A model generated the notes under the pieces. The model was given only the letters and a program-made list of their open reading frames with translations, had not been told where the DNA came from and searched no databases. From positions 64,001-128,000 of the forward strand of contig JAYKHS010000026.1 of assembly GCA_035285865.1 (NCBI GenBank): a stretch of DNA of 64,000 nt. Direction: 5' to 3'. The DNA comes from Candidatus Sericytochromatia bacterium. GTDB lineage: Bacteria; Cyanobacteriota; Sericytochromatia; S15B-MN24; VGJW01. The position numbers and the translations under genes were made by a program. Every line of letters starts with the position of its first letter. The stretch's first letter is position 1. This document shows positions 37,021 through 61,256 of this stretch, in pieces.

Positions 37021-37054
37021 GAGTCCATCCTACCCCCGGGATGCCCCGGGGGGC

Positions 37055-39742: not shown

Positions 39743-39745
39743 GGA

Positions 39746-41535: not shown

Positions 41536-41536
41536 C

Positions 41537-42478: not shown

Positions 42479-42514
42479 CGTCAACACCCGTTTGTACCAC
42501 CCATCATGGCCATG

Positions 42515-43985: not shown

Positions 43986-43989
43986 CGTG

Positions 43990-44751
43990 TCAGACCGCGA
44001 CGGCTGCGGTCTTCGGGTTGCGAACCGTTTCCATGAAGAGTGTTTCCAGGTCGCGGCCGTCCCGCGAGAGATCCGCGATGGCCGCTTCCGCTGCCAGTTG
44101 GCCCTCCACGAGAATACCGACCCGGTCGCAGATTTCGGAGACATCCGACAGGATGTGCGAGTTGAAGAAAATGGTCTTGCCCTGGCGTTTCAGGTCCAGG
44201 ATCAACTCGCGGAATTCGTGACGGCCGACGGGGTCGAGGCCGCTCATGGGCTCGTCGAGCAGGACGAGCTCTGGGTCGTTGATGAGGGCCTGTGCGATGC
44301 CGACACGCTGCAACATTCCCTTGGAATACTTCTTGAGCTGGACCTTGCGTGCATCCTGCATGCGGACCTGAGTCAGAAGGCGGTCCGCACGCTCGTCGAC
44401 GACCTGCCGAGGCAGTTTGAAGAGCCCGCCGCAGAAGCGCAGGAACTCTTCCCCCGTCAGGTGTTGATAGAAATAGGGATTCTCAGGAAGGTACCCGATA
44501 CGGTTGCGCACATCGGGGTTTTCGGGGCTCTCCCCGAAGAGTCGGATCTCGCCACGGGTCGGACGGACAAGTCCGAGGAAAAGCTTCTGGGATGTGGTCT
44601 TGCCTGCACCGTTCGGGCCCAGCAAACCGAAGGTCTCCCCCGGTTCGATGCGAAGATCGAGGTCCGACAGGGCGTGGCGCGCCGGTTGCCCGATCTGCGC
44701 CGCATAGGTCTTGGAGAGGCCTTTGGCCTCGAGGACAGGCACGCTCATCAT
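43990..44751 (-). CDS. ABC transporter ATP-binding protein (PilH-like)
   Basis: GPNGAGKTT, YSKGMLQR, LLDEP, NSH. Confidence 0.93.
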   Translation of the reverse strand: MMSVPVLEAKGLSKTYAAQIGQPARHALSDLDLRIEPGETFGLLGPNGAGKTTSQKLFLGLVRPTRGEIRLFGESPENPDVRNRIGYLPENPYFYQHLTGEEFLRFCGGLFKLPRQVVDERADRLLTQVRMQDARKVQLKKYSKGMLQRVGIAQALINDPELVLLDEPMSGLDPVGRHEFRELILDLKRQGKTIFFNSHILSDVSEICDRVGILVEGQLAAEAAIADLSRDGRDLETLFMETVRNPKTAAVAV

Positions 44752-44821
44752 GGCTGAACCTAGTCTATACCAGAGCCGATGGCCAGCCGCCAGAGGCGAC
44801 AGGCCCACGGAAAAACTCGGA

Positions 44822-45304
44822 TCAGGTGTTGTTGAGGACCGAGACCACGACGGCGTTGCCGGCCTTCTTGCCGACGCCAGTGATGGTGTACTGGTCGTTG
44901 GCGGTACCCGCTTCGGTGTAGCAAACGGCACCGTAGTGGTTCTCGGCGAAGGTACCCGTGTTGATGCCTGCACCTAGTGAATCATTCAGCACGACCTTGG
45001 TGGGCGCAATGTTCGCGGTCTGGGCCTGGCCCCACGGGGTCTTGGGATAGGCACCGCCAGCCATGTACTCGGTCTTCTGGATCACGTTCCCATAGAAGTC
45101 TGCCTTCACAGGGTAAACGCCGGCATTGTCCACACCGTACTGTTCAAGTGCCATCTGCACACTGTGAGCGTTGGCTTGGACGCCGGCATTCTTGGCCTTG
45201 TCCTGGGCTCCCATGAAGTTGGGCACGGCCACGGACGCGAGGATGCCGATGATGACGACGACCACGAGCAACTCGATCAGGGTGAAACCACGAGACTTGC
45301 GCAC
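44822..45304 (-). CDS. pilA: Type IVa major pilin
   Basis: RGFTLIELLVVVVIIGILA class III signal. Confidence 0.85.
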   Translation of the reverse strand: MRKSRGFTLIELLVVVVIIGILASVAVPNFMGAQDKAKNAGVQANAHSVQMALEQYGVDNAGVYPVKADFYGNVIQKTEYMAGGAYPKTPWGQAQTANIAPTKVVLNDSLGAGINTGTFAENHYGAVCYTEAGTANDQYTITGVGKKAGNAVVVSVLNNT

Positions 45305-45498: not shown

Positions 45499-45546
45499 AC
45501 AGGCATTGGGGGTGGTGTTCGGTCGCCCCCGATGAAGGAGAGTGTC

Positions 45547-46710
45547 TTGGCCTTCAACCCCCTGAGTCGGCTGGGAGGCGGTGGCATCGACCCCGCGCTG
45601 TCCCGGACCGCTGGTGGGCGTGGTCTGGGTCCGATCGACGCCGAGATCGACGCCAAGGCCAAGACCATGGCGTCACTGGCGTGGCAGACGGCCGTGGGCC
45701 GCTCCGGAACCGCCGATCCCTCGCTCGAGGCCGCAGCGCGCCAGAAGCCCTCGGGGCCGACCTGGTTCGGCTTCCACAACGACGCCTCCATCCTCGCGCG
45801 TCTGGCCCAGCAGGGCGTAGCCCCAACGCCCGTGCACCTGCGCATCGCCCAGCAGATGCTTCGGTACGGAGTCCCGCTTCAGCCTGCCAACATCGAGCAG
45901 ATCCGGGCACTCTGGCAGGCTCTGGGTGGTTCGTCGCTCGTCGATCTCGAGGCATTGACAGCCCTTTTCGCTGCGGGTCTGCCAACCGACCCGGAAAACT
46001 TCAAGGCGATGTCCCGCCTGCTTGCCGGTGGGCCGGCCGCCCATCTGTTCGCACGGACAGCCATGACGCTCAGGTCGGCCGGCCCGGCCGGCCCGCAGGC
46101 CGAGGCTCTGAAGCAATCGCTGCAGGCGTGGTGGAAGCTGGGCAACGGGCCCGAGATGCTGGCGTCCGAGATGCCCCAATTCCAGCAACTGTCGACCCGC
46201 ATCCGCCAGCAGGTGACCGCGCTCTCGGGCGCTCGCCTGCCCGAACAGCTGGCCCAGGACGTGCAGGCCCTCGCCGAGCATTTCCGTGCCCACGAGATGC
46301 TTCAGCGCACGCCTCAGAACTCCCTCTACATCCCCTTCTTCCAGTGGCGCGACCAGCAGCCGTTGCCCGGGGAAATTCTGATCCACGCGGACCGCGACGG
46401 GCACGCCGAGCGAACTGGCCAATACGCACAGGTCACGCTGGCCATCGACACGCGCAATCTTGGCCGCATCACGATCGATCTGACGGCCAGCCGAGGCCAC
46501 CTCGGCATCGCCTTTGAGGTGCAGGACGCCAGGATCAAGGCCTACATGGACGCCCGGACCCCCGAGCTTGGGAAGCGGATCGCGCCCAGAACCGGGTACG
46601 TGCTGGCCGGGATGCGGGTCGACGCCGTCGGCAACGGCCGCAGCATCTCGATCTTGCTGCCCCGGCGCAGGGATCTGCGCCGTTTGTCGCGCGCCGTGGG
46701 GGTCCTGTGA
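45547..46710 (+). CDS. FliK-like hook-length/ruler protein (C-terminal T3S4-like domain)
   Basis: TRNLGRITIDL...LGIAFEV...TPELGKRI; first gene of the flagellar cluster; TTG start with RBS AAGGAG. Confidence 0.55.
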   Translation: MAFNPLSRLGGGGIDPALSRTAGGRGLGPIDAEIDAKAKTMASLAWQTAVGRSGTADPSLEAAARQKPSGPTWFGFHNDASILARLAQQGVAPTPVHLRIAQQMLRYGVPLQPANIEQIRALWQALGGSSLVDLEALTALFAAGLPTDPENFKAMSRLLAGGPAAHLFARTAMTLRSAGPAGPQAEALKQSLQAWWKLGNGPEMLASEMPQFQQLSTRIRQQVTALSGARLPEQLAQDVQALAEHFRAHEMLQRTPQNSLYIPFFQWRDQQPLPGEILIHADRDGHAERTGQYAQVTLAIDTRNLGRITIDLTASRGHLGIAFEVQDARIKAYMDARTPELGKRIAPRTGYVLAGMRVDAVGNGRSISILLPRRRDLRRLSRAVGVL

Positions 46711-46937
46711 GAGGCAATCGTCCTGACGACGACGCGCTTTGGAACAGCCTGGCGCAAGTGGCCGAAGCCTACGGGGCTCCGCCCGCCGAGGCCGCGGCCC
46801 TGACGCGGGTGCTCGGGCAATTGGACCCGCGTTCGGTGCCTCCCGAACTCGCGGCGGCTGTTGCCGAGACGCTTGGGTTCGTCTTCGCACTGGATCAGCA
46901 GGCTGAAGGAGCGGGCACGATGGAGGGACGTCGATGA
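46707..46937 (+). CDS. Small hypothetical protein
   Basis: Overlaps both neighbours (GTGA/ATGA coupling). Confidence 0.6.
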   Translation: MRGNRPDDDALWNSLAQVAEAYGAPPAEAAALTRVLGQLDPRSVPPELAAAVAETLGFVFALDQQAEGAGTMEGRR

Positions 46938-47665
46938 TCCGGGGCATCTACACCGCAGCATCCGCGATGCAGCTCAACACGCACATGGTCGACGTGATGG
47001 CCGACAACCTCGCCAACTCGGCGACCACCGGCTACAAGCGCAAGGAAGCCATCGTGCGTTCCTTCGGCGATGTGCTGGTGGACCTGACGGGGGATGCCGA
47101 GCCGGGGCGGGTCCAGCTTGGCGCCAAGATTGACGAGGTGGCCCGGGACGGCAAGGCGGGCAGCCTCCGGAGGACGGACGGGCTGCTTGACGTGGCCGTC
47201 GAGACCGACGATCACCAGATGCTGGCGCAGCGCGCCGACGGAACCCGGCTCTTCACGCGCAACGGCCAGCTCAGGCTGGATGCCGAGCGTTACCTCGTGA
47301 CCAGTACGGGCGACCGCATCCTTGACGCCGGACTTGCTCCCATCGAGATGCCCCAGGACTTGAATGGCCTGCGCATTGAGGCCGACGGCACGGTGCGCAG
47401 CACTGCCGGTGTCGTGGGACGCATCGGCCTGTTCACGCCCTCGGTGGCCCAGATGACGGGTTTCCCGGTGGCGATCGGTGCCTTGCTGCCGGCCGAAGGC
47501 GGCCGCCTGCAGCAGGGCTATCTCGAGTCGTCGAACGTCAATATCGTCACCGAGATGATGGGCCTCGTCGAGGCCAATCGCCACTTCGGCTTGGGCCAGA
47601 AACTCGTCACCGTGCATGACCAGTTGCTGCAGAAGGCCAGCAACGACCTCGGCCGTACCCAGTAG
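46934..47665 (+). CDS. flgF: Flagellar proximal rod protein FlgF
   Basis: MIRGIYTAASAM, NLANSATTGYK, FTRNG, QGYLESSNVN. Confidence 0.88.
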   Translation: MIRGIYTAASAMQLNTHMVDVMADNLANSATTGYKRKEAIVRSFGDVLVDLTGDAEPGRVQLGAKIDEVARDGKAGSLRRTDGLLDVAVETDDHQMLAQRADGTRLFTRNGQLRLDAERYLVTSTGDRILDAGLAPIEMPQDLNGLRIEADGTVRSTAGVVGRIGLFTPSVAQMTGFPVAIGALLPAEGGRLQQGYLESSNVNIVTEMMGLVEANRHFGLGQKLVTVHDQLLQKASNDLGRTQ

Positions 47666-47692
47666 TCCCCAGTTCCACGGAGGAATGTCGCC

Positions 47693-48472
47693 ATGATGCA
47701 TTCGATCTGGACCGCTGCCACCGGCATGCAGGCGCAGCAGATGCGCATCGATGCCATCGCCAACAATCTGGCGAACGTCAACACGACGTCCTACAAGAAG
47801 AGCCAGGTGGACTTCCAGGACCTGCTCTACCAGGCGGTGCAGGCCCCCGGGCAGGAGACCGCCGGCATGCAAGTGGGGCTTGGCGTGCGGCCGGCTGCAA
47901 TCACGAAGTATCACGCGCAGGGCAATCTGCAGGTCACGAACAATCCCCTCGACGTCGCCATCGACGGGCCGGGCTTCTTCCAGGTGACCACCACGGATTC
48001 CCGGGTCGTTGGCGGTCGGGCCTTCACGCGGGACGGATCCTTCAAGATCAATAATCTGGGGCAGCTCGTGACGTCCACCGGCCTGGTGGTCCAGCCCGAG
48101 ATCCAGCTGGGCAACGTCACGGACATCCGTATCCGCGAAGACGGCATGGTGTTCGGTCGTCTCGGGGGCGCCGGGCCTGTCACCCAGATCGAGGGCATCC
48201 AGCTGGTGACGTTTCCCAACCCTGCTGGGCTGATGTCCATCGGCAACAACCTCTATATGGAGACGGCTGCCAGCGGTCCGGCCAACGCCCCTGCGGCGGG
48301 TGGCGCAAACGGCAATGGTCGCTTCGTCCAGGGGGCTCTCGAAGCCTCGAACGTCGAACTCGTGACCGAGATGGTCATGATGATCGCGACGCAGAAGGCT
48401 TACGACACCTCTTCAAAAGCCATCAATGTTTCCGACAAGATGATGGAGTCGACCAACGGCCTCATCCGCTAA
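47693..48472 (+). CDS. flgG: Flagellar distal rod protein FlgG
   Basis: AATGMQAQQ, ANNLANVNT, FQDLLYQ, LEASNV. Confidence 0.95.
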   Translation: MMHSIWTAATGMQAQQMRIDAIANNLANVNTTSYKKSQVDFQDLLYQAVQAPGQETAGMQVGLGVRPAAITKYHAQGNLQVTNNPLDVAIDGPGFFQVTTTDSRVVGGRAFTRDGSFKINNLGQLVTSTGLVVQPEIQLGNVTDIRIREDGMVFGRLGGAGPVTQIEGIQLVTFPNPAGLMSIGNNLYMETAASGPANAPAAGGANGNGRFVQGALEASNVELVTEMVMMIATQKAYDTSSKAINVSDKMMESTNGLIR

Positions 48473-48483
48473 CGGTCGGGAAC

Positions 48484-49224
48484 GTGAGCAACATGCGCGC
48501 AGGGGGATTCGCGGGGGTGGCCGTCGCCGCCCTCATGTTGCTGCTCGCTGTCACGCCCGGGGCCGAGGCTCGGCCGGCGCTCGGTCGCGTGGCTCTGGAC
48601 ACGGTGCGGGCTTCGCTGCAGGCGCAGTACCCGGGGGGCGAGGTCGAGGTCAAACCCCTGCTTCCCGAGATCTCCACCATGATCCCAAAGGGGGCGGTCG
48701 ACCCCACGCTGCGCCTCTCGGGTCCCGTTCGCCAACTGGGACCGTCCGTGCCCGTTTCTCTGGATGTCCTGGACCGGAACGGCCGCAAGATCGCCTCCGT
48801 GGTGCCTCGATTCTCCGTCGAGGTTTGGCGCAACCTGCCCGTGCTCGCTCGGGCGATGCCACGCGGCACGGCCCTCGCCCCCGCCGACATCGAGGTCCGG
48901 CGGCTCGCCCAGAGTCGCGTGACCGGCTCGGTTTTGCTTGACGTGGGGTCTTTGATCGGGGCCAGACTGGTCCGCAGCCTCGCCAGCGGCAGCGTGCTCG
49001 TGACCCACATGCTTGATCTGCCTCCCGTGGTCCGCCAAGGGGCAACCGTGCGCGTGCACGTGCGCAGCGGGGGCCTCGAGGTGCTCGGACAGGGGACTGC
49101 ACTACAGGACGGGCGCGTCGGCCAGGTCATCCGGATGGTCAATCCGACCTCGCGCAAGGACTTCCTTGCCAGGGTCCGTGACGCCGAAGTTGTCGAATTG
49201 GATCTCGGGGAGGAACTCGAATGA
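48484..49224 (+). CDS. flgA: P-ring chaperone FlgA
   Basis: SAF-like region, VVRQG, GTALQDGRVGQVIRMVNP. Confidence 0.88.
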   Translation: MSNMRAGGFAGVAVAALMLLLAVTPGAEARPALGRVALDTVRASLQAQYPGGEVEVKPLLPEISTMIPKGAVDPTLRLSGPVRQLGPSVPVSLDVLDRNGRKIASVVPRFSVEVWRNLPVLARAMPRGTALAPADIEVRRLAQSRVTGSVLLDVGSLIGARLVRSLASGSVLVTHMLDLPPVVRQGATVRVHVRSGGLEVLGQGTALQDGRVGQVIRMVNPTSRKDFLARVRDAEVVELDLGEELE

Positions 49225-49847
49225 TGCGGAGCCTCGCGTGCCTCGCGGTGACCGCGGTGTTGGTCGTCGCACCCACCGATGCGGCGCGTGCCGACTCACT
49301 CTTCCCCGACAGCAACTATGGCGGGCTGATAAGCGATCAGGTCGGGGATCGGCGCATGGCCATCGGCCCGGGCTCCCTCGTCACGGTGGTCGTGACGGAG
49401 AACATCCAGGCCGAGCAGGCGGCGACGACCCGTACCATCAAGGATTCCAAGGTCTCTTCGTCGTGGGACTTCGGGTCGATCTTCGGCATCGGCGCCAATA
49501 ACCAGGGCTCTTTCAACAATCAGGTCGAGATGTCCGGAAAGGCCGACTTCAACGGCGACGGCGTGACGCGTCGGGGTGGGACGATCTCGATGCTTGTGGC
49601 GGCTCAGATCACGGAAATCCTTCCTGATGGCTCGATGCGCATCAAGGGTTCCAAGGATCTGGTGGTCAACGACGAGAAGTCGACGGTGGTGATCTCGGGC
49701 GTGGTCCGCCCGTGGGACATCGGCATCGACAACCGGATTCCCAGCGAGCGGATTGCCGGCTTCCAGCTCGAGTACCAGGGCTCGGGGCCCAACTCGGCGA
49801 AGACCACACCAGGCCTGTTCTCGCGTCTGCTGAACTGGCTGTTCTAG
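49221..49847 (+). CDS. flgH: L-ring protein FlgH
   Basis: GSLVTVVVTE, EILPDG, ISGVVRPWDI..DNRIPSERIA. Confidence 0.9.
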   Translation: MMRSLACLAVTAVLVVAPTDAARADSLFPDSNYGGLISDQVGDRRMAIGPGSLVTVVVTENIQAEQAATTRTIKDSKVSSSWDFGSIFGIGANNQGSFNNQVEMSGKADFNGDGVTRRGGTISMLVAAQITEILPDGSMRIKGSKDLVVNDEKSTVVISGVVRPWDIGIDNRIPSERIAGFQLEYQGSGPNSAKTTPGLFSRLLNWLF

Positions 49848-49859
49848 GGGCTTGCCAAC

Positions 49860-50987
49860 TTGAGACCCACACGCGCCATTCCCGGATGCCTGATGCTTGT
49901 CGGCCTCCTGCTGCTGCAGGCTCTGCCTTCACGAGCTCAGGTCCTGCAGGGTAAGCCTGCGCGGCTCAAGGACATCGCGACCGTCTCGGGAGCGCGATCC
50001 AATATCCTCCACGGCATGGGACTGGTGGTAGGCCTCGATGGCACGGGCGACTCCCAGACGACGGGTTTCACCGAGCGGGCCCTGCGCAACTTCATCCAGG
50101 CCGCCGGCATGTTCCCGACCGAGCGGCTGCGGACGCGCAACGTAGCCGTCGTTTCGGTCGATGCCCGCTTGCCGCCCTTCTACAAGCCCGGGCAGACCAT
50201 CGACATCACGGTGTCGTCCATCGGCGACGCCCGCAGCCTAAACAACGGCGTCCTGATCCCGACCGCGCTCAAGGCCGCGGACGACAAGGTCTACGCCGTG
50301 GGCCAAGGGCCGCTGAGCACGGGCGGCTTCGGCATCGAGGTGAACGGTTCCCAGGTCAAGAAAAACCCGACTCTGGTGGCGCGCATCCCGAACGGCGGGC
50401 TCGTCGAGCGAGAGGTGCCGGTCACGGTGCTCGATGCCAACGGTTTCCTCTACATCAATCTCAACAATCCGGACTTCATCACGGCATCCCGCGCGGCCGC
50501 CGCCATCGGACGCTCCTACCTCGGCTCGGCCCAGGCCCTCGACGCCGGGACCATCCGGGTCTACGTGACCAACCAGTATCGCGACAATCTCGTGGATCTG
50601 GTGGCGCGCCTCGAGGGTCTCGAGGTGGCACCCGACGCCGTGGCCAAGGTCGTGGTCGAGGAGCGCACGGGCACGGTCATCCTCGGATCCAACGTGAAGA
50701 TTGATCCCGTGGCCATCAGCCATGGCGGGCTTATCATCAAAGTCGAGACCAAGTTCAACGTCTCCCAGCCCAATCCATTGTCGGCCGGCCAGACGACCGT
50801 CACTCAGGAGTCCCAGGTCTCCGCCGAGGAGCAGAAGGCCAAGGCGGTCATCTTCGACAAGGGCACGACCCTGGGCACGCTTGTTCGGGCCTTGAATGCG
50901 CTGGGCACCACGCCGCGCGACCTCATCACCATCCTGCAGAACATCAAGGCGGCCGGTGCCTTGAACGCCCAGCTGGAGATCATCTGA
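49860..50987 (+). CDS. flgI: P-ring protein FlgI
   Basis: RLKDI, GLVVGLDGTGD, SSIGDARSL, ERTGTV, AGALNAQL. Confidence 0.95.
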   Translation: MRPTRAIPGCLMLVGLLLLQALPSRAQVLQGKPARLKDIATVSGARSNILHGMGLVVGLDGTGDSQTTGFTERALRNFIQAAGMFPTERLRTRNVAVVSVDARLPPFYKPGQTIDITVSSIGDARSLNNGVLIPTALKAADDKVYAVGQGPLSTGGFGIEVNGSQVKKNPTLVARIPNGGLVEREVPVTVLDANGFLYINLNNPDFITASRAAAAIGRSYLGSAQALDAGTIRVYVTNQYRDNLVDLVARLEGLEVAPDAVAKVVVEERTGTVILGSNVKIDPVAISHGGLIIKVETKFNVSQPNPLSAGQTTVTQESQVSAEEQKAKAVIFDKGTTLGTLVRALNALGTTPRDLITILQNIKAAGALNAQLEII

Positions 50988-51415
50988 TGCAGGTGCCCCC
51001 GCCACCCGGCTTGCCCCCGTCACGGGGGGCGCAGGCTCCTGCTCGCTTCGGGCAGGATCTGTCGGCCACGTTGCCCGGGGGCGTGCCTCCGATGTTGCCG
51101 CAGATTGCGGGTGCGGCCGGCGTTCGTCCCGTCGTGGGTACACCCGCCGGCGTGACGGGGAACCAGATGGAACCGGCAAATCCCGAGGAGGCGGCAAAGG
51201 CGTTCGCAAGCATCCTTTTCGGGTACATGTTTGCGGAGATGCGCCCCAAGGAAGAGGACAGTCTGCTCGGGGGCGGGGATACCGAGATGTTCATGGACTT
51301 CTTCGATCAGGCGATGGCCAGGAATTTCGTCGACCAGGGCAACCCCCTCGTCGACCTGATCGTGGATCGTCTGTCGCCCAAGGACACCGGCAAGGGAGAA
51401 GCTGGTCCCTCATGA
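50987..51415 (+). CDS. flgJ: FlgJ-like rod-binding protein (no muramidase domain)
   Basis: EEAAKAFASIL..MFAEMR...EMFMDFFDQAMA. Confidence 0.75.
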   Translation: MQVPPPPGLPPSRGAQAPARFGQDLSATLPGGVPPMLPQIAGAAGVRPVVGTPAGVTGNQMEPANPEEAAKAFASILFGYMFAEMRPKEEDSLLGGGDTEMFMDFFDQAMARNFVDQGNPLVDLIVDRLSPKDTGKGEAGPS

Positions 51416-52134
51416 GTGACAAGCGTGCCACGATGCCGGGCTCCAAGGGGGCTCCGGCGCTTGATGCCGCGCAAATCAAGAAGTACGAGGGTCTGGTACG
51501 CAGCATTGCACGCAAGCAGCTCGGCAAGCTGCCGCAGCACTACGAGCTCGAGGAGCTCATCGCGGACGGCTGGATGGGGCTGATGATGGCGCATGACCGC
51601 TTCGACCCGGATCGTGGCGTGAAGTTCGAGACCTTCGCCACCTACTACATCCGTGGCGCGATGCTGGACAACCTGCCCAAGCTGCCCAAGCCGCCCAAGA
51701 TCAAGGGGGAAAAGGGGCCCGAGGCGCCCGAAGGTGCGCCAGCCGAAGGCGAAGAGGAGGGCGAAGCAGCCCTGATGGTCAATCGGGTGACCGAACTGGC
51801 ATACAGCTATCTGCTCTCGCTGGATGATCCTGCCGGTGGCGATGGGGACGACGGGTATTCGCGTCTGGACCAACTCGGTCGCTGGGACAACAAGCAGAAG
51901 GAGCTGGAGGAACAGGACCTGCACCGGATCCTGAAGCTGACCATCCAACTGCTCGAGGATCGCGAGCGTATCACGCTCGAGAATTACTATTTCAAGAACA
52001 TGAGCTTCGCGGAGATAGGCGAGATGCTCGGTCTCTCCGAATCGTGGGTCAGCCGGATCCATCGGCGGGCGCTCAGTCAGGTGCGTCAGAAACTGGGCAA
52101 GAAGAAGTCGATCGACGACTTCATCAGCTGGTAA
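51412..52134 (+). CDS. FliA/WhiG-family sigma factor with aberrant region 3
   Basis: RFDPDRGVKFETFA..IRGAMLD; EIGEMLGLSESWVSRIH. Confidence 0.85.
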   Translation: MSDKRATMPGSKGAPALDAAQIKKYEGLVRSIARKQLGKLPQHYELEELIADGWMGLMMAHDRFDPDRGVKFETFATYYIRGAMLDNLPKLPKPPKIKGEKGPEAPEGAPAEGEEEGEAALMVNRVTELAYSYLLSLDDPAGGDGDDGYSRLDQLGRWDNKQKELEEQDLHRILKLTIQLLEDRERITLENYYFKNMSFAEIGEMLGLSESWVSRIHRRALSQVRQKLGKKKSIDDFISW

Positions 52135-52149
52135 GGGCAGGAGGGCGAC

Positions 52150-52551
52150 ATGGACCTGTTCGGCAAGGAAATCCGCGGGCTCGAGCGCGCGATGGACGGC
52201 CTGTCCCGGCGCATGGAGGCCACGGCCCTCAACCTGGCGAACGTGCATACCCCCGGTTATGCGCGGCGCGATGTCCGGTTCGAGGACTCGCTCGCCGAGG
52301 TCCTCGATTCCATGGAGGTGCCCATCGATCCCGAACGGACGGAGGCACCCGAGGATCCTTCCTACATGATTGAGCAATGGCAGCCAAGGACCGAGATCGA
52401 TGAGCGCCGTCCCCAGCGGCTCGATGGCAATGGGGTGATCCTCGAGAAGGAGGTTTCGACCGCCAGCCAGGCTGCTCTTCGTTTCAACGTCCTGGCCACG
52501 AGCGTCGCCGGGGACTACCGCGACCTCAAGTTCGTCATCGACGCCAAGTAA
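52150..52551 (+). CDS. flgB: Rod protein FlgB
   Basis: NLANVHTPGYARRDVRFE, RLDGNGV. Confidence 0.9.
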   Translation: MDLFGKEIRGLERAMDGLSRRMEATALNLANVHTPGYARRDVRFEDSLAEVLDSMEVPIDPERTEAPEDPSYMIEQWQPRTEIDERRPQRLDGNGVILEKEVSTASQAALRFNVLATSVAGDYRDLKFVIDAK

Positions 52552-52563
52552 TCCAGGCCGTGG

Positions 52564-52600
52564 GGGCTCCGGGCATCGCGCCCGGGGCCCTTTAATTCTT
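52564..52600 (+). terminator. Intrinsic terminator between flgB and flgC
   Basis: gggctccgggc/gcccggggccc stem followed by tttaattctt. Confidence 0.65.
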
Positions 52601-52685
52601 CATTGGCGAACTTTTCGGTTGCATCATCCGGGGGTACAAGAAAGCCGAACCGTCCTGGCCCGGTATTCGCTGGAGGTGGCGTCCG

Positions 52686-53084
52686 ATGAGCCTGATGAAC
52701 GTATTCAATACCGGCGAGAGCGCGCTTGCCGCCAACCGGATGTGGTTGGAGGTCATCGCGGGCAACCTCGCCAATGCGCAGACCACGCGCACGGACGAGG
52801 GCGGTCCCTACCGCCGCAAGGTGCCGCTGTTCTCCGAGGTGCTGGACGCCGAGATGCAGGGCGTGCGCGTGTCGGCCATCGAACAGGACCAGAGTCCGCT
52901 CCAGAGGGTCTACAAGCCCGGCCATCCGGATGCGGACAAGGATGGCTTCGTCAGCATGCCCAACGTCAACGTCGTCACCGAGATGGTCGACATGATTGGC
53001 GTCCAGCGCAGCTATGACGCCAACGTCACGGTCATGCAGGCCATCAAGTCGATGGCCAACAAGTCCATGGACATCGGGAGGTAG
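52686..53084 (+). CDS. flgC: Rod protein FlgC
   Basis: NLANAQTTR, GGPYRRK, YKPGHPDAD, PNVNVVTEM. Confidence 0.95.
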   Translation: MSLMNVFNTGESALAANRMWLEVIAGNLANAQTTRTDEGGPYRRKVPLFSEVLDAEMQGVRVSAIEQDQSPLQRVYKPGHPDADKDGFVSMPNVNVVTEMVDMIGVQRSYDANVTVMQAIKSMANKSMDIGR

Positions 53085-53087
53085 CGC

Positions 53088-53465
53088 GTGCGCATCGACG
53101 GTTTCCGAACGCCCGGTGTCGGTCAGGCCTTCGGGGGTTTCCCGGCCTTCGGGGACTTCCCGGCCATGCCCGAAGCGTTGTCGTCCGACAGCAAGATGCC
53201 ATCCGTCACCGATTCCTTCGAGGCAAGCGAGGATGATGGTCCCGGTGCGCACTTCGCGGCCATCCTGAACGATGCCATCGATTCGGTGAACGCGCAGCAG
53301 ACTCGGTCGGAGCAGATCACGATGGACTTTGCCTTGGGCAAGGCGGTTGACCCGCATGCCGTCATGATCGAGAACGCCAAGGCGGAGACGCTGGTCCATC
53401 TCACCAGCAGCGTCACCAACAAGATGGCGCAGTCGTTCCAGACCCTGATGAATCTCCAGATCTGA
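53088..53465 (+). CDS. fliE: FliE
   Basis: FAAILNDAIDSVN...HAVMI...NKMAQSFQTLMNLQI. Confidence 0.88.
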   Translation: MRIDGFRTPGVGQAFGGFPAFGDFPAMPEALSSDSKMPSVTDSFEASEDDGPGAHFAAILNDAIDSVNAQQTRSEQITMDFALGKAVDPHAVMIENAKAETLVHLTSSVTNKMAQSFQTLMNLQI

Positions 53466-53472
53466 TCGCCGC

Positions 53473-55395
53473 ATGGGCTTCCTGCAGAATCTGACCCCCC
53501 AGCAGCGGATCGCCCTGCTCGGCGGTGGCGGTGGTCTGATCCTGTTGCTGATCGTCGCCATCACCTTTGCGGTGATGTCGGGCGGCAAGAAGGACGAGCC
53601 GCAGGCCCGCGAGCAGGAGTCCGGCTACGAGGTGGTCTTCAAATACCTGCAGCCCAAGGAGATGGACGAGGCGGCCGCCGCCCTGAAGGCTCAGAAGATT
53701 CGCGAATTCAAGTTCACCGAGGACGGCACGCTGCTGGTCCAGAAGGACAAGGTCGTCGACGCGCGCGTGGCGCTGGGTGAAGCGCAGGTCCCCAAGAACC
53801 CGAACAACCAGGGTCTCGAGATCTTCAACAAGAAGGACTTCATCTCGACGGACTTCGACAAGAAGATCGCCTTCCTGCGGGCGCTCAACGGCGAACTGAC
53901 GCGTCTGGTCCGCAAGGTCCAAGGCGTCGAGGACGCCACCGTGCTCGTGAACATGCCCGAGGACACGCTCTTCCAGCAGGAGAGGAAGGCCATCACGGCC
54001 AGCGTGATGATCAAGATGGAGGCCAGTCGCCAGCTGACGCCCCAGCAGGTCGAGGGCATTCAGCACATGGTGGCTTCCGCCGTTCCGGGCCTGCTCACGG
54101 ACAATGTCACCGTCGTGGACGATCAGGGTAACCTCATCTCGAGCGGCCTCGAAAACAACATCGGCGACCAGAACGAGCGCCTCGTTTCTCGCGCTATTGA
54201 CCAGCAGATGAAGATTACCCGGTCCATGGAAGGCGAGATCCAGACCAGCCTGCAGTTGCTGCTCGACAAGTTGGTCGGCAACGGCAAGTCCGTGGTGCGC
54301 GTGCGCCTTGAGTTGGATTTCAACAAGCGTCAGGTCCGCAATCGCCTCCTGGCCCCCGTGACGGCCAACGGCGAGCCCATGAGCAGTGCGCGCTCCGTGC
54401 AGCGTGAGACGCTGAAGAACGGGGCGCAGGGTGCCGCGCCCGGCACGACGGCCAATCTGCCCAGCTACCCCTTGCTGCCCGGGAACGTCTCGGGCCAGCC
54501 CGGCGTCGCGGGGTCGACGCAGGGTCAGGAGACCTCGCGCGAGAACATTCGCGAGCAGCCTGCCTTCAACCAGGAAGACCAGATCGTCCAGACGGCCTCA
54601 GGCAACATCAAGCGGATGAGCATCGCCGTGCTCCTGCCCGAGACGGTCAAGCCCGAGGCCGTCGACAAGCTGCGCAACGTCATCGCGGCTGCTGCGGGCG
54701 CCGATCCGGCCCGTCGGGATCAGGTCACGGTCGAGCGGGTCAAGTTCGACACCACGCTCATGGACCAGCTCAAGGAGCAGCTCAACAAGAAGGAAGCCGA
54801 GGCCAAGGCGGCCGCGAAGAAGAAGGGCGCCGTTGGCTGGAACCTGGTTATCTGGGGCGGGGTTGCCGCCTTCGTGTTCGCGGCGATCGTGGCGCTCGTC
54901 TCCCGGCGCAAGCGGTCGACCGAGAACCCGTTCGATGTCCTGTCCTCTGGCCTCGATGCCGAGGCCTTGCCGTCCGGCTTCGAGGGACCCGGGGCGTTGG
55001 GTGGATTCCCGACCCCCGAGCAGCTGGGTGCCTTGCCCGGCGGGATGCCTCAGATGGGCGGATTCAACCAGGACCAGACCGACTATGCGGCTCAGGCGGG
55101 TTACGGGGCACCCCAACAGGATTTCGGGGCCCAGCAGGCCGGGGGGCCCTTCGACTTCACCTATCAGGTCGGTCCCGATCAATTGGCCGAGGCCTTGGCG
55201 ACCGAGCGTCCCGCCACGGTCGCCGGCGTGCTGGCCCAGCTTGACCCCTCGTTCGCCGAGACCGTCATCGCCAGCCTGCCGCCGGACATTCAGGGCGACG
55301 TCTTCAACCGGATGGGCTCCGCGGCACCATTGCCGTCGATGACCCAGCGGATGGTGTCGCAGAACCTCAGGCGCAAGCTGGGGGTTCCGGTCTAG
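53473..55395 (+). CDS. fliF: MS-ring protein FliF with C-terminal FliG-like domain
   Basis: GLEIFN, RALNGELTR, TASVMI, VASAVPGL, second TM; tail PFDF...ERPATVAGVL. Confidence 0.9.
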   Translation: MGFLQNLTPQQRIALLGGGGGLILLLIVAITFAVMSGGKKDEPQAREQESGYEVVFKYLQPKEMDEAAAALKAQKIREFKFTEDGTLLVQKDKVVDARVALGEAQVPKNPNNQGLEIFNKKDFISTDFDKKIAFLRALNGELTRLVRKVQGVEDATVLVNMPEDTLFQQERKAITASVMIKMEASRQLTPQQVEGIQHMVASAVPGLLTDNVTVVDDQGNLISSGLENNIGDQNERLVSRAIDQQMKITRSMEGEIQTSLQLLLDKLVGNGKSVVRVRLELDFNKRQVRNRLLAPVTANGEPMSSARSVQRETLKNGAQGAAPGTTANLPSYPLLPGNVSGQPGVAGSTQGQETSRENIREQPAFNQEDQIVQTASGNIKRMSIAVLLPETVKPEAVDKLRNVIAAAAGADPARRDQVTVERVKFDTTLMDQLKEQLNKKEAEAKAAAKKKGAVGWNLVIWGGVAAFVFAAIVALVSRRKRSTENPFDVLSSGLDAEALPSGFEGPGALGGFPTPEQLGALPGGMPQMGGFNQDQTDYAAQAGYGAPQQDFGAQQAGGPFDFTYQVGPDQLAEALATERPATVAGVLAQLDPSFAETVIASLPPDIQGDVFNRMGSAAPLPSMTQRMVSQNLRRKLGVPV

Positions 55396-55409
55396 CGGCC
55401 GGTTGATCC

Positions 55410-57515
55410 ATGCCGCAGCGCAAGGGGCTGATTCCTGATCTGATCCTGGCCGGGATCGTCATCCTGGTCCTTGCGATCCTCGTCATTCCGCTTCCCTTGT
55501 GGATGCTGGACCTGCTGCTGATCATCAACCTGGTCGCGGCTCTGGTCATCGTCTTCGTCTCGCTCTATCTGGTCCGGCCCCTCGAGTTCGCAAGCTTCCC
55601 GTCGTTGCTGCTGATCATGGCGCTGTACCGCCTGGCCTTGTCGGTGGCCACGTCGCGGTCGATCCTCAGCCATGCGGAAGCCGGCAAGGTCATCGAGACC
55701 TTCGCCAACTTCGTGGTCGGCGGCAATTTCATCGTCGGTTTCATCCTGTTCGCGATTCTGATCATCGTGAACTTCATCGTCATCACCGAAGGTGCGAAAC
55801 GGGTCGCCGAGGTTGCTGCCCGGTTCACCTTGGACGCCATGCCTGGCAAGCAGATGTCCATCGATGCCGACCTGGCCGCAGGCCTCATCGATGCGGAGGG
55901 TGCCAAGAAGCGCCGCACGGACCTCGAGCGCGAAGCCAACTTCTTCGGCGCAATGGACGGTGCCAACAAGTTTGTTCGGGGCGATGCGATCGCCGCCATC
56001 ATCTTGATCTTCGTCAACATCATCGGCGGCATCCTGATTGGGATCCTGCAGAAGGACATGGAGGTCGAACAGGCCCTCAAGGTCTATTCGCTGCTGACAA
56101 TCGGCGACGGCTTGGTCGGCCTGATACCCGGCCTGTTGATTTCGATCTCGGCCGGTTTCGTGACCACGCGTGCGGCCTCGGACTTCAATCTCGCGACGGA
56201 CCTCAAGAACCAGCTCTTCACCAGCCCGAAAGTCCTTGGCATCGTCGGCTTCGTCATCATCATGATGGGCTTCATTCCGGGCTTCCCGACGGTTCTGATG
56301 CTGTTGCTCGGGCTTGGTATCCTCTTCGCGGCCTTCGTTGCCTACAGAGGGGGACTGCTCGGGGCTGCACCGCCCTCCCTGGCGGGAGATGCGCCACCGA
56401 TGGGTGACGAATTCGACGACTACCAGCCGGAGTCGGACGAGGACCTCAAGAATCCCGAGAACGTCATGAAGATGCTCGGCGTGCCGCCGCTGACGCTCGA
56501 ACTGGGCCTCGATCTGGTACCTCTGGTGGACCCCGGCCTCGGTGGCGAGCTGATGGATCGCGTCGTGCCCATGCGCGTGGCCATCGCGTTGGACCTCGGT
56601 TTCGTCATGCCGGGTATCCAATTCAAGGACAACCTCAATCTGCGGCCGAATGCCTACCAGATCCTGGTCAAGGGAAACACCGTCGCCACGGGCGAGCTGC
56701 TGGTCGGCTACATGCTGGCCATCCAGCTCAACACGACGGACCTGTCTCAGGAGTTGGTCGGCTTCCCGACGAGCGATCCGGCGGGCAACCGTCCTGCTGT
56801 CTGGGTGGCCGGTGCCGAGGCGCAACGAGCCGCACAGCTGGGCTACCTGATCCAGGATCCGACCAACGTGCTGACGGCACACCTTGAGGAAGTGGTCCGG
56901 GCACATGCTCACGAGATCCTGAGCCGCGAGGAGGTCAAGATGATGCTCAACCGGCTGCAGGAGCGTGCCCCCATCACGGTCAAGGAGCTGGTGCCCGAAG
57001 TGCTTGCGCTGGGCGAGGTACAGCGCGTCCTGCAATCGCTCCTGCGCGAGCGGGTGAGCATCCGTGACCTCGCCACCATCGCCGAGAAGCTGGCCGACTT
57101 CGGCAAGATGACCAAGGATGTCTTCACGCTCACCGAACTGGTGCGGCAACAGCTTTCCCGGAACATCTGCGCTTCTGTGGCCGACGATGAGGGTCGCATC
57201 GACGTGATCACGCTTGATCCAGCGGTCGAGGGCGCCATCCAGCAGGCCATCCAGCCTGGACCTCAGGGACCGACGCTGGCGCTGAACCCCCAGATCGCCC
57301 AGCTGATGCTTGCGCGGCTGGCTGGCGTGGTGAACGAGGCCCTCGCCAAGGGCCAGAACCCGGCAGTGCTCGTCAGCCCGATTGTGCGTCCCCACGTCAA
57401 GAACCTGGTGGATCGCAACTTTCCGAACCTTTCGGTTCTGTCCTACTCCGAGATCAACGCCAAGTTCAAGGTCCAGGCGATCGGGGCCGTCTCGATTGCC
57501 GTCGGGGCTGCTTGA
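55410..57515 (+). CDS. flhA: Export gate protein FlhA
   Basis: RVAEVAARFTLDAMPGKQMSIDADL, FFGAMDGANKFVRGDAI, LTIGDGL, LLRERVSIRDL. Confidence 0.96.
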   Translation: MPQRKGLIPDLILAGIVILVLAILVIPLPLWMLDLLLIINLVAALVIVFVSLYLVRPLEFASFPSLLLIMALYRLALSVATSRSILSHAEAGKVIETFANFVVGGNFIVGFILFAILIIVNFIVITEGAKRVAEVAARFTLDAMPGKQMSIDADLAAGLIDAEGAKKRRTDLEREANFFGAMDGANKFVRGDAIAAIILIFVNIIGGILIGILQKDMEVEQALKVYSLLTIGDGLVGLIPGLLISISAGFVTTRAASDFNLATDLKNQLFTSPKVLGIVGFVIIMMGFIPGFPTVLMLLLGLGILFAAFVAYRGGLLGAAPPSLAGDAPPMGDEFDDYQPESDEDLKNPENVMKMLGVPPLTLELGLDLVPLVDPGLGGELMDRVVPMRVAIALDLGFVMPGIQFKDNLNLRPNAYQILVKGNTVATGELLVGYMLAIQLNTTDLSQELVGFPTSDPAGNRPAVWVAGAEAQRAAQLGYLIQDPTNVLTAHLEEVVRAHAHEILSREEVKMMLNRLQERAPITVKELVPEVLALGEVQRVLQSLLRERVSIRDLATIAEKLADFGKMTKDVFTLTELVRQQLSRNICASVADDEGRIDVITLDPAVEGAIQQAIQPGPQGPTLALNPQIAQLMLARLAGVVNEALAKGQNPAVLVSPIVRPHVKNLVDRNFPNLSVLSYSEINAKFKVQAIGAVSIAVGAA

Positions 57516-57925
57516 TGCGTGGTGCCGGCCGTCCGGTTGCACGGGCGCGGTCGTGGATCCGGCTGCTGGTGCTCTGGATGGTCGTGCTCTGCTTCGGAGC
57601 GGCCTCGACGTTATTGGAGGACGAGCGCGTGGGCGGTCAGGAGGCGCACCACCTTCTCCTGGAGGACGTGTTGGCCTGCGATGCCGTGTCGCTGGGCCGC
57701 GGTCTCGCCGGCATCCCGGAGTTCCGTGCGCGCGTGCCTGCGTTACGGGGCGAGTCCGGCCAGTTCGCTTCACGTCGGATGGTTGACCGTAGTCGGACGA
57801 CCTCCGGAGGCGTACGGGAGGGCTGTGCGATGGCCCCGCCAACATCACGCGGGCCACCGTCTACGGGGCGGGGCGGACCTTTCCTGATTCGCTGGCGCGA
57901 TCGTTGGGGGTGGGTCGGACCGTAA
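57515..57925 (+). CDS. Putative leader/exported peptide with RGPP motif
   Basis: Hydrophobic N-terminal segment; RGPP at 57848-57859; ATG overlaps flhA stop. Confidence 0.35.
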   Translation: MRGAGRPVARARSWIRLLVLWMVVLCFGAASTLLEDERVGGQEAHHLLLEDVLACDAVSLGRGLAGIPEFRARVPALRGESGQFASRRMVDRSRTTSGGVREGCAMAPPTSRGPPSTGRGGPFLIRWRDRWGWVGP

Positions 57926-58054
57926 GGCCCAGGTCGACCCTGCGAGGTCGTCCACGACCCCACGAATGCTGGAGTTCCGACCTAGTCCGTTTCATCACCG
58001 CCAGCAGCAGCTGTTGCCGCCGATGCCGGTCTCGGCCCGCGGCTCGCCTATTGC

Positions 58055-59333
58055 ATGAATCCTGTCGACCGCCGGTATGAGGATCTCCGGACGGGTCATC
58101 TCGGCCTCAATATCCTCCGCGACTTGATGGCCGGTCTGATCGTGGCCATGGTGGCCATTTCGCTGGCCATGGGCTTTGCGATGGCCAGCGGATTGGCCCG
58201 AGCAGGGCATCGTGGGCGGGGCCGTGGCCGGCGCCATAGGCGCTCTGTTCGGGGGCTCCAAGTACCAGGTCTACGGACCGACGGCGGCCTTCATCCCGAT
58301 CATCGCGGGCATCATGGCCAAGCACGGCTATTCGATGCTGGTGCTGGCGTCGATTCTTGCAGGCTTGGTCCTGATGGTCATGGGGGTCGCTCGCCTCGGG
58401 CGCGTGGTGGCGCGCGTGTCCCACTCCATTGTGGTGGGATTCACCGTGGGCATCGCCCTGTCTAAGGTCGGTGAGGTCCTGGGCCTGCACGCCAAGTTTG
58501 GCTATGCCATGGCAGACAAGAACCGCGGCATCGTCGCACACGGTCACGAGACCAACGTCTATGCCGTCATCATCGCGCTGCTGACCTTCGCGATCAGCTA
58601 GACGCTCATCAAGGTTTCCGTCCTCATTCCGGCGCCGCTGATTGCCGTCGGTGCCGGTACGATGCTCGCGCAGGGACTGTAGGCCGACAAGGGGCTCGTG
58701 ACGGTTCGCGAGAAGTACGGTTCCATTCCGACGGACTTCTGGATCTTCACGCCTCCGCAGGGCATCGACCCGACCCCGGCGGTACTGGGCGACCTGGCCT
58801 TCTATACCTTGGCCATCATCTTCGTGGCGGCCATCGAGGGCCTGCTCTGCAGCCGCATGGCCGATCGCCTGGCGGGCAACAAGGGCATGCCCTACAACCC
58901 GGACAAGGAGCTCTGGGGGCAGGGTCTGATGCAGGTCGTGGTGCCGCTGCTGAACGGCTTCCCCCATACGGGTGCGCTCGCCCGGACGGCCACCAACATC
59001 AGGTTGGGTGCCTTGTCTCCGCTTGCAGGCCTTTTCAAGTGCGTGCTGAAGCTGCTGCTTGCGGCCTTCCTCGCCTCGTGGCTGGAGCGGGTGCCCATGG
59101 CCTGCATCGGCGGCAGCCTGCTTTATGTGGCCTCGGGCATGGTCAAGGCCGATGAGGTGCGCGAACTGGTCCGTGACGGCAGGGCGCACATGGCACTGGC
59201 CGCCTGGACTGCCGTGATGGTCGTCGCCACAGACTTCCTGAGGGACGTTCTGTCGGCGCTTCTCATCTTCATCCTGTTCCGGAGATTTTTCGAGACTGGG
59301 TTTCAGGCGGCTCCGCCGGCCAGCGCTTCCTGA
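58055..59333 (+). pseudogene. SulP family anion transporter pseudogene
   Basis: RDLMAGLIVA, GGSKYQVYGPT, GFTVG, DKELWGQG, ARTATN; frameshift near 58200; in-frame TAG at 58599 and 58680; no STAS domain. Confidence 0.85.
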
Positions 59334-59391
59334 CCACCGAACCGCCGTCCCCGGTGCGCAAGCACGCATCGGGGACGGCTCGAGTGTCGCG

Positions 59392-61032: not shown

Positions 61033-61051
61033 GGACGACCTCCAAGGGGGT

Positions 61052-61070
61052 TTGTAACATTTATTTACAA
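61052..61070. promoter_or_regulatory. Palindromic operator TTGTAA-N7-TTACAA
   Basis: Perfect AT-rich inverted repeat 20 nt upstream of the PucR-family start. Confidence 0.55.
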
Positions 61071-61182
61071 TGGAGATCAAGCACGGCGGACGTGATCGTC
61101 ATGTGGCCTGAAAACCTTGTGTTTGCTTGTTCTGGTCGTCTGTTGGCCCTCATCTCACGGCCTCATGTGTTGTCTGTACCGG

Positions 61183-61228
61183 CTTGAGTGTTGTGCGGTT
61201 ACTTGACAATGATTGACTAAGGTTGATG
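61183..61228 (+). promoter_or_regulatory. clpB promoter with heat-shock repressor-like operator
   Basis: TTGACA -35; CTTGACA-ATG-ATTGACT (CtsR-like) overlapping CTTGACA-N7-ACTAAGG and an upstream CTTGAGT (HAIR-like). Confidence 0.5.
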
Positions 61229-61256
61229 ATGGTGGCACGAGGGAGGCAGAACCCTG

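Follow-up and report, generated by a model that had tools for sequence, protein, structure and literature searches.

Filament-less hook-basal bodies are made by Buchnera, where they are thought to act in export, and in the known dual flagellar systems, such as polar plus lateral flagella, FliG, stator, junction, cap and flagellin are all encoded separately for each set. In Lysobacter enzymogenes, according to the available part of the account (PMC7688988), mutations in fliI and flhB that blocked the flagellin-less flagellar type III secretion system (T3SS) impaired toxin secretion. The non-flagellate Chlamydiaceae possess a fusion of FliF with the middle domain of FliG (FliG_M), and its tail is proposed, in the accessible sections of the source, to bind a protein of the FliM/SctQ type (Bergeron 2016, PMC4768692). 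Among non-photosynthetic bacteria, Sericytochromatia and Melainabacteria stand nearest to the cyanobacteria, and the genomes of both have so far been taken as simply "flagellated". The DNA analysed here, called the window, is a stretch of 64,000 nucleotides from a Candidatus Sericytochromatia bacterium (GenBank assembly GCA_035285865.1, contig JAYKHS010000026.1, designated C26, positions 64001-128000), and a cluster of flagellar rod, ring and export genes lies at 45532-57515 in it. The source genome is a metagenome-assembled genome (MAG) of 2.82 Mb in 32 contigs, 82.7% complete, with a GC content of about 67%.

Judged by its sequence, this cluster forms the core of a second flagellar-type gene set (set 2), paralogous to a conventional fla/che set (set 1) that lies in the same genome on contigs other than C26. 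On balance, the product of set 2 is probably a non-rotating basal body with a rod, L and P rings and a tip like a hook, whose role would be protein export or that of a surface structure and not swimming. No description of the second flagellar set was found in the literature searched. The cluster consists of 14 co-oriented genes on the plus strand, spanning about 12 kb and identified with Pfam; neighbouring genes mostly abut or overlap, and the gene starts, taken from a simple caller based on GC content at third codon positions, are approximate.

The genome encodes two copies each of FlhA, FlhB, FliP, FliQ, FliR, FliI, FliF, FliM, FliN, FlgB, FlgC, FlgF, FlgG, a FlgE-type protein, FlgD and a FliA-like sigma factor. 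The set-1 operon (C22, about 93-122 kb) encodes FlgB, FlgC, FliF (526 amino acids, aa), FliG (337 aa, with N, M and C domains), FliI, FlgD, FlgE (842 aa), an FlhB-C-like protein, FlbD, MotA, MotB, FliL, FliM, FliN, CheY, FliP, FlhB, FlhA, CheA, a FliA-like sigma factor and CheW, together with FliQ and FliR, which were detected by phmmer. Further set-1 parts, FlgF, FlgG, FlgJ, FlgM, FlgN, FlgK, FlgL, FlhF and FlhG, are encoded on C5, where two open reading frames (ORFs) of 344 and 382 aa without a Pfam family lie upstream of flgF1/flgG1 (C5:57224-59413; L007:1224-3413). FliD and FliS are encoded on C6. Flagellins are specified by four tandem genes (C22:74-78 kb), one gene on C16, and a gene on C14 for a giant protein of 1008 aa. 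The latter (C14:186055-189081, minus strand; L033:14056-17082) carries Flagellin_N and Flagellin_C at its opposite ends and adjoins a transposase gene at the contig end; matches to flagellin-N also occur in ORFs of 800-1800 aa in other genomes of the class.

The set-2 genes outside the window are scattered. An operon on the minus strand of C22 (4145-10745) has the order flgD2-flgE2-fliM2-(membrane SpoA protein)-fliN2-fliPQR2, and its products are a FlgD of 140 aa, a FlgE-like protein of 379 aa, a FliM-like protein of 292 aa (C22:8188-9063), a FliN of 153 aa, and FliP, FliQ and FliR (C22:4145-6017). The membrane SpoA protein is polytopic, 460 aa long, and ends in a SpoA (FliN) domain; a search of the ESM Atlas with its membrane part gave no usable match. 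The genes fliH2 (465 aa) and fliI2 (445 aa) are on C5, and flhB2 (432 aa), which keeps the NPTH motif, is on C28. A HEAT-repeat protein of about 770 aa adjoins the flgD2/flgE2 locus both in this genome (C22:10851-13154, 67% GC) and in genome G033 (L040:8956-11295, 27% GC), where it is located between cheW and cheR. The proteins FlgA, FlgH and FlgI, encoded in the window cluster, and FlgK, FlgL, FliD and FliS, encoded with set 1, are each present in a single copy in the genome. Near-complete genomes of the same genus agree, such as G024 (98% complete), which has one each of FlgH, FlgK, FlgI and FliS.

The first-pass annotation, made from the window sequence, had noted that flgD/E, flgK/L, fliC/D, motAB, fliM/N, fliH/I, fliPQR and flhB are lacking from the cluster, and indeed none of them was found either in the cluster or in its flanks, scanned at 29781-44757 and at 57512-63878 (positions 1-29780 were not scanned for families). 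Searches of the whole genome for flagellar families likewise returned no copy on C26 apart from the cluster's own genes. A minimal machine made of the cluster parts only, without FliPQR, FlhB, ATPase, C-ring proteins or hook, would fit this absence, but it is scarcely credible: set-2-type copies of all these genes exist elsewhere in the genome, and in relatives that have set 2 alone they are the sole copies, the single copies of the scattered genes in these one-set relatives being of the window-cluster type. The annotation had itself allowed that the missing genes may lie elsewhere, and it is this proviso, rather than the minimal machine, that has proved right, most of the genes being duplicated on other contigs. 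A full hook, filament, stator and C-ring gene set, formally at odds with the filament-less export machine then suggested, is also encoded elsewhere, but by the paralogous set 1. Since set 1 has its own FliF, FliG, FlhA and rod, it is not the missing half of the cluster.

The distribution of the two sets was surveyed in 47 genomes of Sericytochromatia, grouped in families (f1-f7), and set 2 was found in every family sampled. Type-2 FlhA, with 59-100% identity to the window protein, is present as 40 full-length and 4 fragmentary copies, while type-1 FlhA (41-47% identity to the window protein) occurs in 37 genomes and in none of the six of family f6. The FlhA2 protein of the window is 41% identical to the other FlhA of its own genome; the FlhA2 clade (at least 58% identity) bears Sericytochromatia-type labels only, and its nearest relatives outside the clade (47-49% identity) are labelled flagellar FlhA. 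Stand-alone proteins corresponding to the C-terminal half of FlhA (about 370-500 aa, FHIPEP positions about 300-656) occur besides the full-length copies in many genomes of both classes. FliM2 was identified in 45 of the 47 genomes, and the order flgD2/flgE2-fliM2-membrane SpoA protein is kept in the 25 loci read in families f1-f4. FlgH is single in 42 of 47 genomes, and lies on the contig of flhA2 wherever coordinates were compared; FlgI is single per genome across the class. The gene order of the window cluster recurs in 12 Sericytochromatia loci with FlhA identities of 59-99% and GC contents of 35-67%, of which eight are contiguous from flgF to flhA, two contain only the sigma factor gene and flgB to flhA (10 kb covered), and two are on short contigs. 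This repetition places the order far from chance. The same order was found in six more loci of family f2, and it is split in two in a genome of 27% GC.

The most distinctive protein of set 2 is its FliF (fliF2, 53473-55395, plus strand), an MS-ring protein of 640 aa with the domains YscJ_FliF and YscJ_FliF_C, whose cytoplasmic tail is the middle (ARM_M) domain of FliG (FliG_M at residues 568-636, E 2e-12, 47.6 bits); FliG_N and FliG_C were not found in it with Pfam. Three of the 49 closest clusters are partial proteins, and the remaining 46 all have this architecture (PF01514, PF08345 and PF14841), which none of the 40 more distant FliF proteins among the matches listed shows. Where members with the fusion are named, their labels are all Sericytochromatia or unresolved cyanobacterial MAGs. 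When 29 sequences were aligned, no cytoplasmic part proved better conserved than this tail (ERPAT...AGVLAQLDP...FNR). When its 89 aa (residues 552-640) were used alone as query in an exhaustive search of 1.84 billion representatives, the fusion clade came first, followed by about residues 100-200 of ordinary FliG proteins of about 340 aa, which correspond to the middle domain.

The C-terminal, torque-receiving domain of FliG was not found as a set-2 gene in any of the 47 genomes. FliG_C is encoded in 40 of them, either in the set-1 FliG of about 340 aa or, in some families, in a FliG-like protein of 360-760 aa that represents a FliF-RBM3/FliG chimera; family f2 has a single copy and family f6 none (0/6), and in four of five f6 genomes FliG_M was detected solely inside FliF2. 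One such FliG-like protein, of 665 aa, is encoded in the genome of the window (C6:61140-63176, minus strand; L011:7138-9135), and contains an N-terminal membrane or periplasmic part followed by the N, M and C domains of FliG. It occurs in families f1 and f3, with shorter forms in f5 and f7, and was rejected as the FliG of set 2, being missing from f2 and f6, both of which carry the set.

FliM2 has no N-terminus of the CheY-binding LSQxEIDALL type in any of the ten orthologues read, whereas FliM1 retains it and starts with SDILSQNEIDALM. The FliM2 protein of the window's genome matches only the SpoA model, while the orthologue in G033 also passes the FliM model with 30 bits. Having neither FliG_C nor the CheY site, set 2 is without the canonical path by which torque and switching signals are received. 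The cluster also contains its own FliA-like sigma factor (51412-52134, plus strand) with sigma-70 regions 2 and 4; no match to region 3 was obtained with Pfam, and an acidic linker occupies its place. This factor is present in every set-2 cluster read, and its best paralogue is the FliA-like sigma factor of set 1 (83.7 bits). No consistent motif that could serve as its promoter emerged when upstream sequences were inspected by eye and matched to a regular expression of the FliA type. The lack of the torque-receiving part in the rotor protein of set 2 makes a non-spinning machine likely.

Family f6 carries set 2 alone. It comprises six genomes, including G033 (93% complete, in three contigs) and G029 (98% complete), and five of the six were taken for further searches for export genes. 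One full-length FHIPEP protein was found in 4/5, one FliP in 3/5, and one FlhB and one FliI in 5/5, while a small FlhB-C-like protein accompanies FlhB in 3/5; FlgH is present in all six genomes, and FlgI and FliM2 in five each. Flagellin_N, FlgK_D1, FliS and FliG_C gave no Pfam match in the six-frame translations of any of the six, and FliD_C no match above the cut-off in any of five. The other 41 genomes have flagellin in 41 cases, FlgK in 39, FliS in 39 and FliG_C in 40. The single copies of G033 were scored against the set-2 and set-1 paralogues of the window's genome. Set 2 scored higher for FlhA (872 vs 619 bits), FliF (237 vs 120), FliI (663 vs 481), FlhB (323 vs 225), FliP (263 vs 214), FliR (168 vs 74), FliM (106 vs 51), the sigma factor (246 vs 92) and the FlgE-like protein (137 vs 61), and FliN was tied (89 vs 91).

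Between two f6 genomes of one genus, the ratio of non-synonymous to synonymous substitution rates (dN/dS) is 0.04-0.19 for FlgH, FlgI, FlgG2, FlgB2, FlgC2, FliE2, FliF2, FlhA2 and the sigma factor, and 0.29-0.41 for FlgJ2 and FlgA; the ratios are rough, since dS is 0.65-1.4 and thus near saturation. These values point to purifying selection, and set 2 is therefore maintained by it in genomes where neither a filament, junction or cap nor a flagellin chaperone or torque domain is detectable. That the cluster is merely what decay has left of a duplicated flagellar locus, functionless in itself, is very improbable: low dN/dS prevails for most genes even in the flagellin-less f6, all 14 reading frames are intact in the window, and gene order is conserved over 27-67% GC. 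Decay would suit one f6 genome, G028, in which flgH and flgI are broken, and the window's MAG is itself just 82.7% complete.

The same G028 (74% complete) is one of several points that weigh against a maintained, non-motile machine. Its flgH is split in three, with a stop codon, and its flgI in two overlapping pieces (G028:C23:12367-14056), reflecting either decay or an assembly error. The f6 genomes retain one MotA/MotB pair (5/5), by score nearest to the set-1 stator. In G033, cheY adjoins flhB2, and cheW, the HEAT-repeat protein gene and cheR follow the FlgE2 orthologue; the same genome encodes five FlgE/FlgG-like paralogues besides the rod genes, which could form a distal structure. A static machine would seem to have no need of L and P rings, which serve as bushings in which a rod turns. 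In all six f2 loci, flhA2 is immediately followed by one or two ordinary flagellin genes of the same orientation, so that set 2 is possibly linked to a filament in this family. Finally, the absences rest on Pfam searches of six-frame MAG translations, from which a very divergent FliG_C or filament protein could escape. As a separate observation, motA-motB of G033 (C1:1270371-1279078; L044) come after an ORF of 1845 aa with no family and a faint FliK-like match, and are followed by genes for a Flp pilin and a prepilin peptidase.

Several of these points would also suit a second motile flagellum that borrows FliG, FlgK/L, FliD, FliS and flagellin from set 1, with family f6 as a derived special case. 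Besides the flagellin genes behind flhA2 in f2, set 2 includes a hook-type protein, FlgD, a FliK-like ruler, an FlhB with NPTH and the L and P rings; the genome encodes three MotA/MotB pairs, although none is beside set-2 genes; and other bacteria, with Shewanella as one example, are well known to carry dual flagellar systems. Two of the MotA/MotB pairs are located outside the set-1 operon, at C28:97750-99438 and C28:12398-13960. However, a borrowed FliG would find no tail for docking FliG_N on FliF2, which carries FliG_M instead, and no second FliG_C tracks set 2, as the single copy in f2 and its absence from f6 illustrate. The CheY-binding peptide is missing from FliM2, and f6 keeps set 2 under purifying selection without genes for filament, junction, cap or FliS. 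A second swimming organelle is for these reasons rather unlikely. The non-motile, flagellum-derived machine put forward at first pass is partly supported, by the lack of a set-2 FliG_C, by FliM2 and by f6, while the f2 flagellins and the MotAB and che genes of f6 continue to count against it.

The L and P rings bear on how the two sets relate. Their genes are flgA (48484-49224, plus strand; ChapFlgA E 5.2e-24, the sole copy in the genome according to phmmer), for the P-ring assembly chaperone, flgH (49221-49847, plus strand; FlgH E 1e-37) and flgI (49860-50987, plus strand; FlgI E 3e-121). The L-ring protein FlgH has no lipobox cysteine; its signal peptide ends in A-x-A|DS, of the signal-peptidase-I type, in the window and in all 12 Sericytochromatia orthologues read. 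The window has the order flgF2-flgG2-flgA-flgH-flgI-flgJ2, while the set-1 locus on C5 runs flgF1-flgG1-flgJ1-flgM-flgN-flgK-flgL and has no space for flgA/H/I. In flagellated Melainabacteria, one locus has the order flgF-flgG-(gap, at the place of flgA)-flgH-flgI-(gap)-flgK-flgL; of the two FlgG paralogues, FlgG1 gives the higher score with the FlgG encoded there. The arrangement in Sericytochromatia resembles a duplication followed by reciprocal loss, which we infer to be its origin, and the flgA/H/I genes of the window likely also serve the set-1 flagellum.

In another reading, the products of the two sets would mix in one flagellum or provide it with alternative cores under different conditions, the cluster then mattering mainly as the sole source of L and P rings. 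The reciprocal losses would fit, with flgA/H/I single and confined to the window cluster and FlgK/L, FliD and FliS single and with set 1, as would the position of fliM2 in family f2, only 2-11 kb from flhA1 on the same contig. Nevertheless, mixing of core parts is not expected, because the components of the closed rings and the gate are all duplicated and strongly diverged (41% identity for FlhA; also FliF, FliPQR and FlhB). Family f6, moreover, carries set 2 alone, and such a mixed organelle is distinctly unlikely.

In the family of Melainabacteria sampled, FlgI was found in 14 of 99 genomes. Six FlgI-positive genomes each encode two full-length FHIPEP proteins and one FlhA-C-only protein, two FliF and two FliP, and have a single FliG_M, located in an ordinary FliG (6/6 in each case). 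Their second locus (L090 in G198:C25, L092 in G230:C12) comprises flgC, an SLT transglycosylase gene, fliE, fliF, a gene for a protein of 311 aa, fliH, flhA and fliI, while the second fliP lies elsewhere in all six. The FliF protein of this locus scores 99 bits to FliF2 and 58-64 bits to FliF1, and its tail is ordinary-looking. The 311-aa protein has no family and an EHERP motif, and is maybe a very divergent FliG. Since flagellated Melainabacteria carry a second FliF, FlhA and FliP, the second set may predate the split of the two classes. In the portions of their paper that are accessible, Di Rienzi et al. listed two flhA genes for one Melainabacterium without comment, and interpreted a genome without filament, cap, junction, L ring and P ring as a case of ongoing genome reduction (PMC3787301).

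The remaining genes of the cluster, all on the plus strand, are as follows. The first, fliK2 (45532-46710), encodes a FliK-like ruler and substrate-switch protein with a T3S4 domain; it matches Flg_hook with 26.6 bits, under the cut-off of 29.8, while all seven orthologues examined match this model (best E 3.5e-12) and two of the seven match HpaP. An ORF of 76 aa (46707-46937) follows, which overlaps each neighbour by four bases and is likely similar to the C-terminal domain of FlhB. It resembles an ORF upstream of flgF2 in G033 (phmmer E 1.9e-09), which matches positions 261-335 of Bac_export_2 (E 3.4e-20); the identity is weakly supported for the window copy, since no Pfam match of its own was found. 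The rod proteins are encoded by flgF2 (46934-47665; proximal rod, with Flg_bb_rod, LlgE_F_G_D1 and Flg_bbr_C and a set-1 paralogue on C5), flgG2 (47693-48472; distal rod, assigned with Pfam, paralogue FlgG1 on C5), flgB2 (52150-52551; proximal rod, Flg_bb_rod, paralogue on C22), flgC2 (52686-53084; proximal rod, Pfam) and fliE2 (53088-53465; rod adaptor, FliE E 3.2e-19). The rod cap protein gene flgJ2 (50987-51415) specifies the rod-binding domain only (Rod-binding, 25.9 bits, slightly above the cut-off) and no muramidase, and its orthologues occupy the equivalent position in relatives. The export gate gene flhA2 (55410-57515; FHIPEP E 5.7e-241) closes the cluster. A terminator-like hairpin on the plus strand (52562-52592; 13 pairs, 10 of them G-C), found by consensus scan only, lies in the 134-base gap past flgB2 and may represent an internal transcript boundary or an attenuator. 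An ORF past flhA2 (57512-57925) was rejected as a member of the cluster, having no family match and an Arg/Trp-rich translation that was judged not protein-like.

The upstream flank, on the minus strand, contains a pilin-like gene, a prepilin peptidase gene, PilM/N/O genes and a secretin gene, and the downstream flank contains pieces of a sulfate permease and genes for a PucR regulator and ClpB. The pilin-like (N_methyl) gene (44822-45304, minus strand) is divergent from fliK2. In G033 a pilin-like gene (L042:8252-8770) lies downstream of a FlgE/G-like paralogue, so that such a gene stands beside set-2 genes in both genomes; nothing beyond this adjacency backs the upstream pilus genes as partners of the cluster, and they were set aside. 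Two adjacent ORFs on the plus strand (58176-58601 and 58698-59333) match the beginning and the end of the sulfate permease family, maybe as a split or frameshifted gene, and both are overlapped by an ORF of 420 aa without a family on the other strand. Pfam bears out the gene list of the first-pass annotation, with the 76-aa ORF as one overlooked gene. Its statements that unrelated genes bound the cluster on both sides and that FliF is fused to a part of FliG, the sigma factor altered and FlgH not a lipoprotein hold as well.

In the mechanism proposed for a non-rotating set 2, FliF2 would form the MS ring, and its fused FliG_M is predicted to dock FliM2/FliN2 and the membrane-anchored SpoA protein directly on this ring. 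The docked FliM2/FliN2 would constitute a fixed, injectisome-like sorting platform for the FliH2/FliI2 ATPase, and the gate formed by FlhA2, FlhB2 and FliP2Q2R2 would export FliE2, the rod proteins, FlgJ2, FlgD2, FlgE2 and FliK2. FlgA, FlgH and FlgI would provide the passage through the outer membrane. FliK2, together with the NPTH site of FlhB2, could then switch the specificity of export to putative late substrates transcribed by the cluster sigma factor. In a wider and more tentative proposal, held with less than even confidence, set 2 could go back to an ancient event in which a flagellum was independently turned into a non-rotating organelle for secretion or for a surface role, which crosses the envelope by means of the rod and the L and P rings and not a secretin, has its MS ring wired to a SpoA platform by FliG_M, and is maybe shared by both non-photosynthetic cyanobacterial classes.

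Two diverged flagellar-type systems are now seen in genomes of these bacteria, one of which is without the parts that receive torque and the chemotactic signal, yet is kept, even alone and filament-less. If set 2 is indeed a machine for export or adhesion, it would show that nature has turned flagella into secretion systems along a second path beside the injectisome, and would be a living counterpart of the transition from flagellum to injectisome, which would become testable. The inference of motility from MAGs would change as well, since flagellar matches in genomes of the f6 type would not imply swimming.

Compared with a flagellum, set 2 possesses the export gate and ATPase (FlhA, FlhB, FliP/Q/R, FliH/I), an MS ring, a rod and L and P rings, and has neither the C-terminal torque domain of FliG nor the peptide of FliM that binds phosphorylated CheY. 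For hook, junction, cap and filament it has a FlgE-like protein and a short FlgD only, with the f2 flagellins as an exception. As in dual flagellar systems, there are two diverged copies of the gate, MS-ring, rod and hook genes per genome and separate sigma factors, but set 2 lacks FliG_C, FlgK/L, FliD and FliS of its own, and the L- and P-ring genes are single. Set 1 is without FlgA/H/I and set 2 without FliG_C, FlgK/L, FliD and FliS, so that neither is complete and the pair falls outside the classical dual-flagella kind.

With an injectisome, set 2 would share, on the proposed reading, a static base of the MS-ring type, a SpoA sorting platform, an ATPase, a FliK/HpaP-like ruler and the NPTH switch of FlhB/SctU. 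It differs in keeping the flagellar rod and the L and P rings, and for this reason it is not filed with the injectisomes; no search for SctC, SctD or a needle was made, and the secretin of the window belongs to the PilM/N/O pilus operon on the other strand. Buchnera likewise keeps basal bodies without flagellin, although there an endosymbiont has reduced the one set that it has, while here an extra, remodelled set is found in free-living bacteria.

For the rotor fusion of FliF2 there is one published precedent, the much shorter FliF-FliG_M of Chlamydia, in which, as far as the accessible part of the source describes it, the cytoplasmic tail is homologous to the middle domain of FliG, as in FliF2 (PMC4768692). 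The chlamydial protein is about 330 aa long and without RBM1 and RBM3, whereas FliF2 has 640 aa and both Pfam FliF domains, and Chlamydia has few flagellar genes, whereas set 2 includes those for the rod and the L and P rings (PMC4768692, same sections). In its working, set 2 would come closest to the T3SS that Lysobacter enzymogenes derives from a flagellum without flagellin. Strain OH11, to the extent covered by the available account, retains functional genes for export and basal body although it has no working flagellin, and needs them to secrete toxic proteins that are not flagellar; the retention without flagellin matches the gene state of family f6. The genome of the window is itself not flagellin-less, as it encodes five flagellins, the giant flagellin and FlgL. 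OH11 differs in having a single degenerate set left after loss of the flagellum, according to the same partial account, while set 2 is a distinct paralogue beside a full set in most genomes, with a remodelled rotor (FliF-FliG_M without FliG_C) and a sigma factor of its own.

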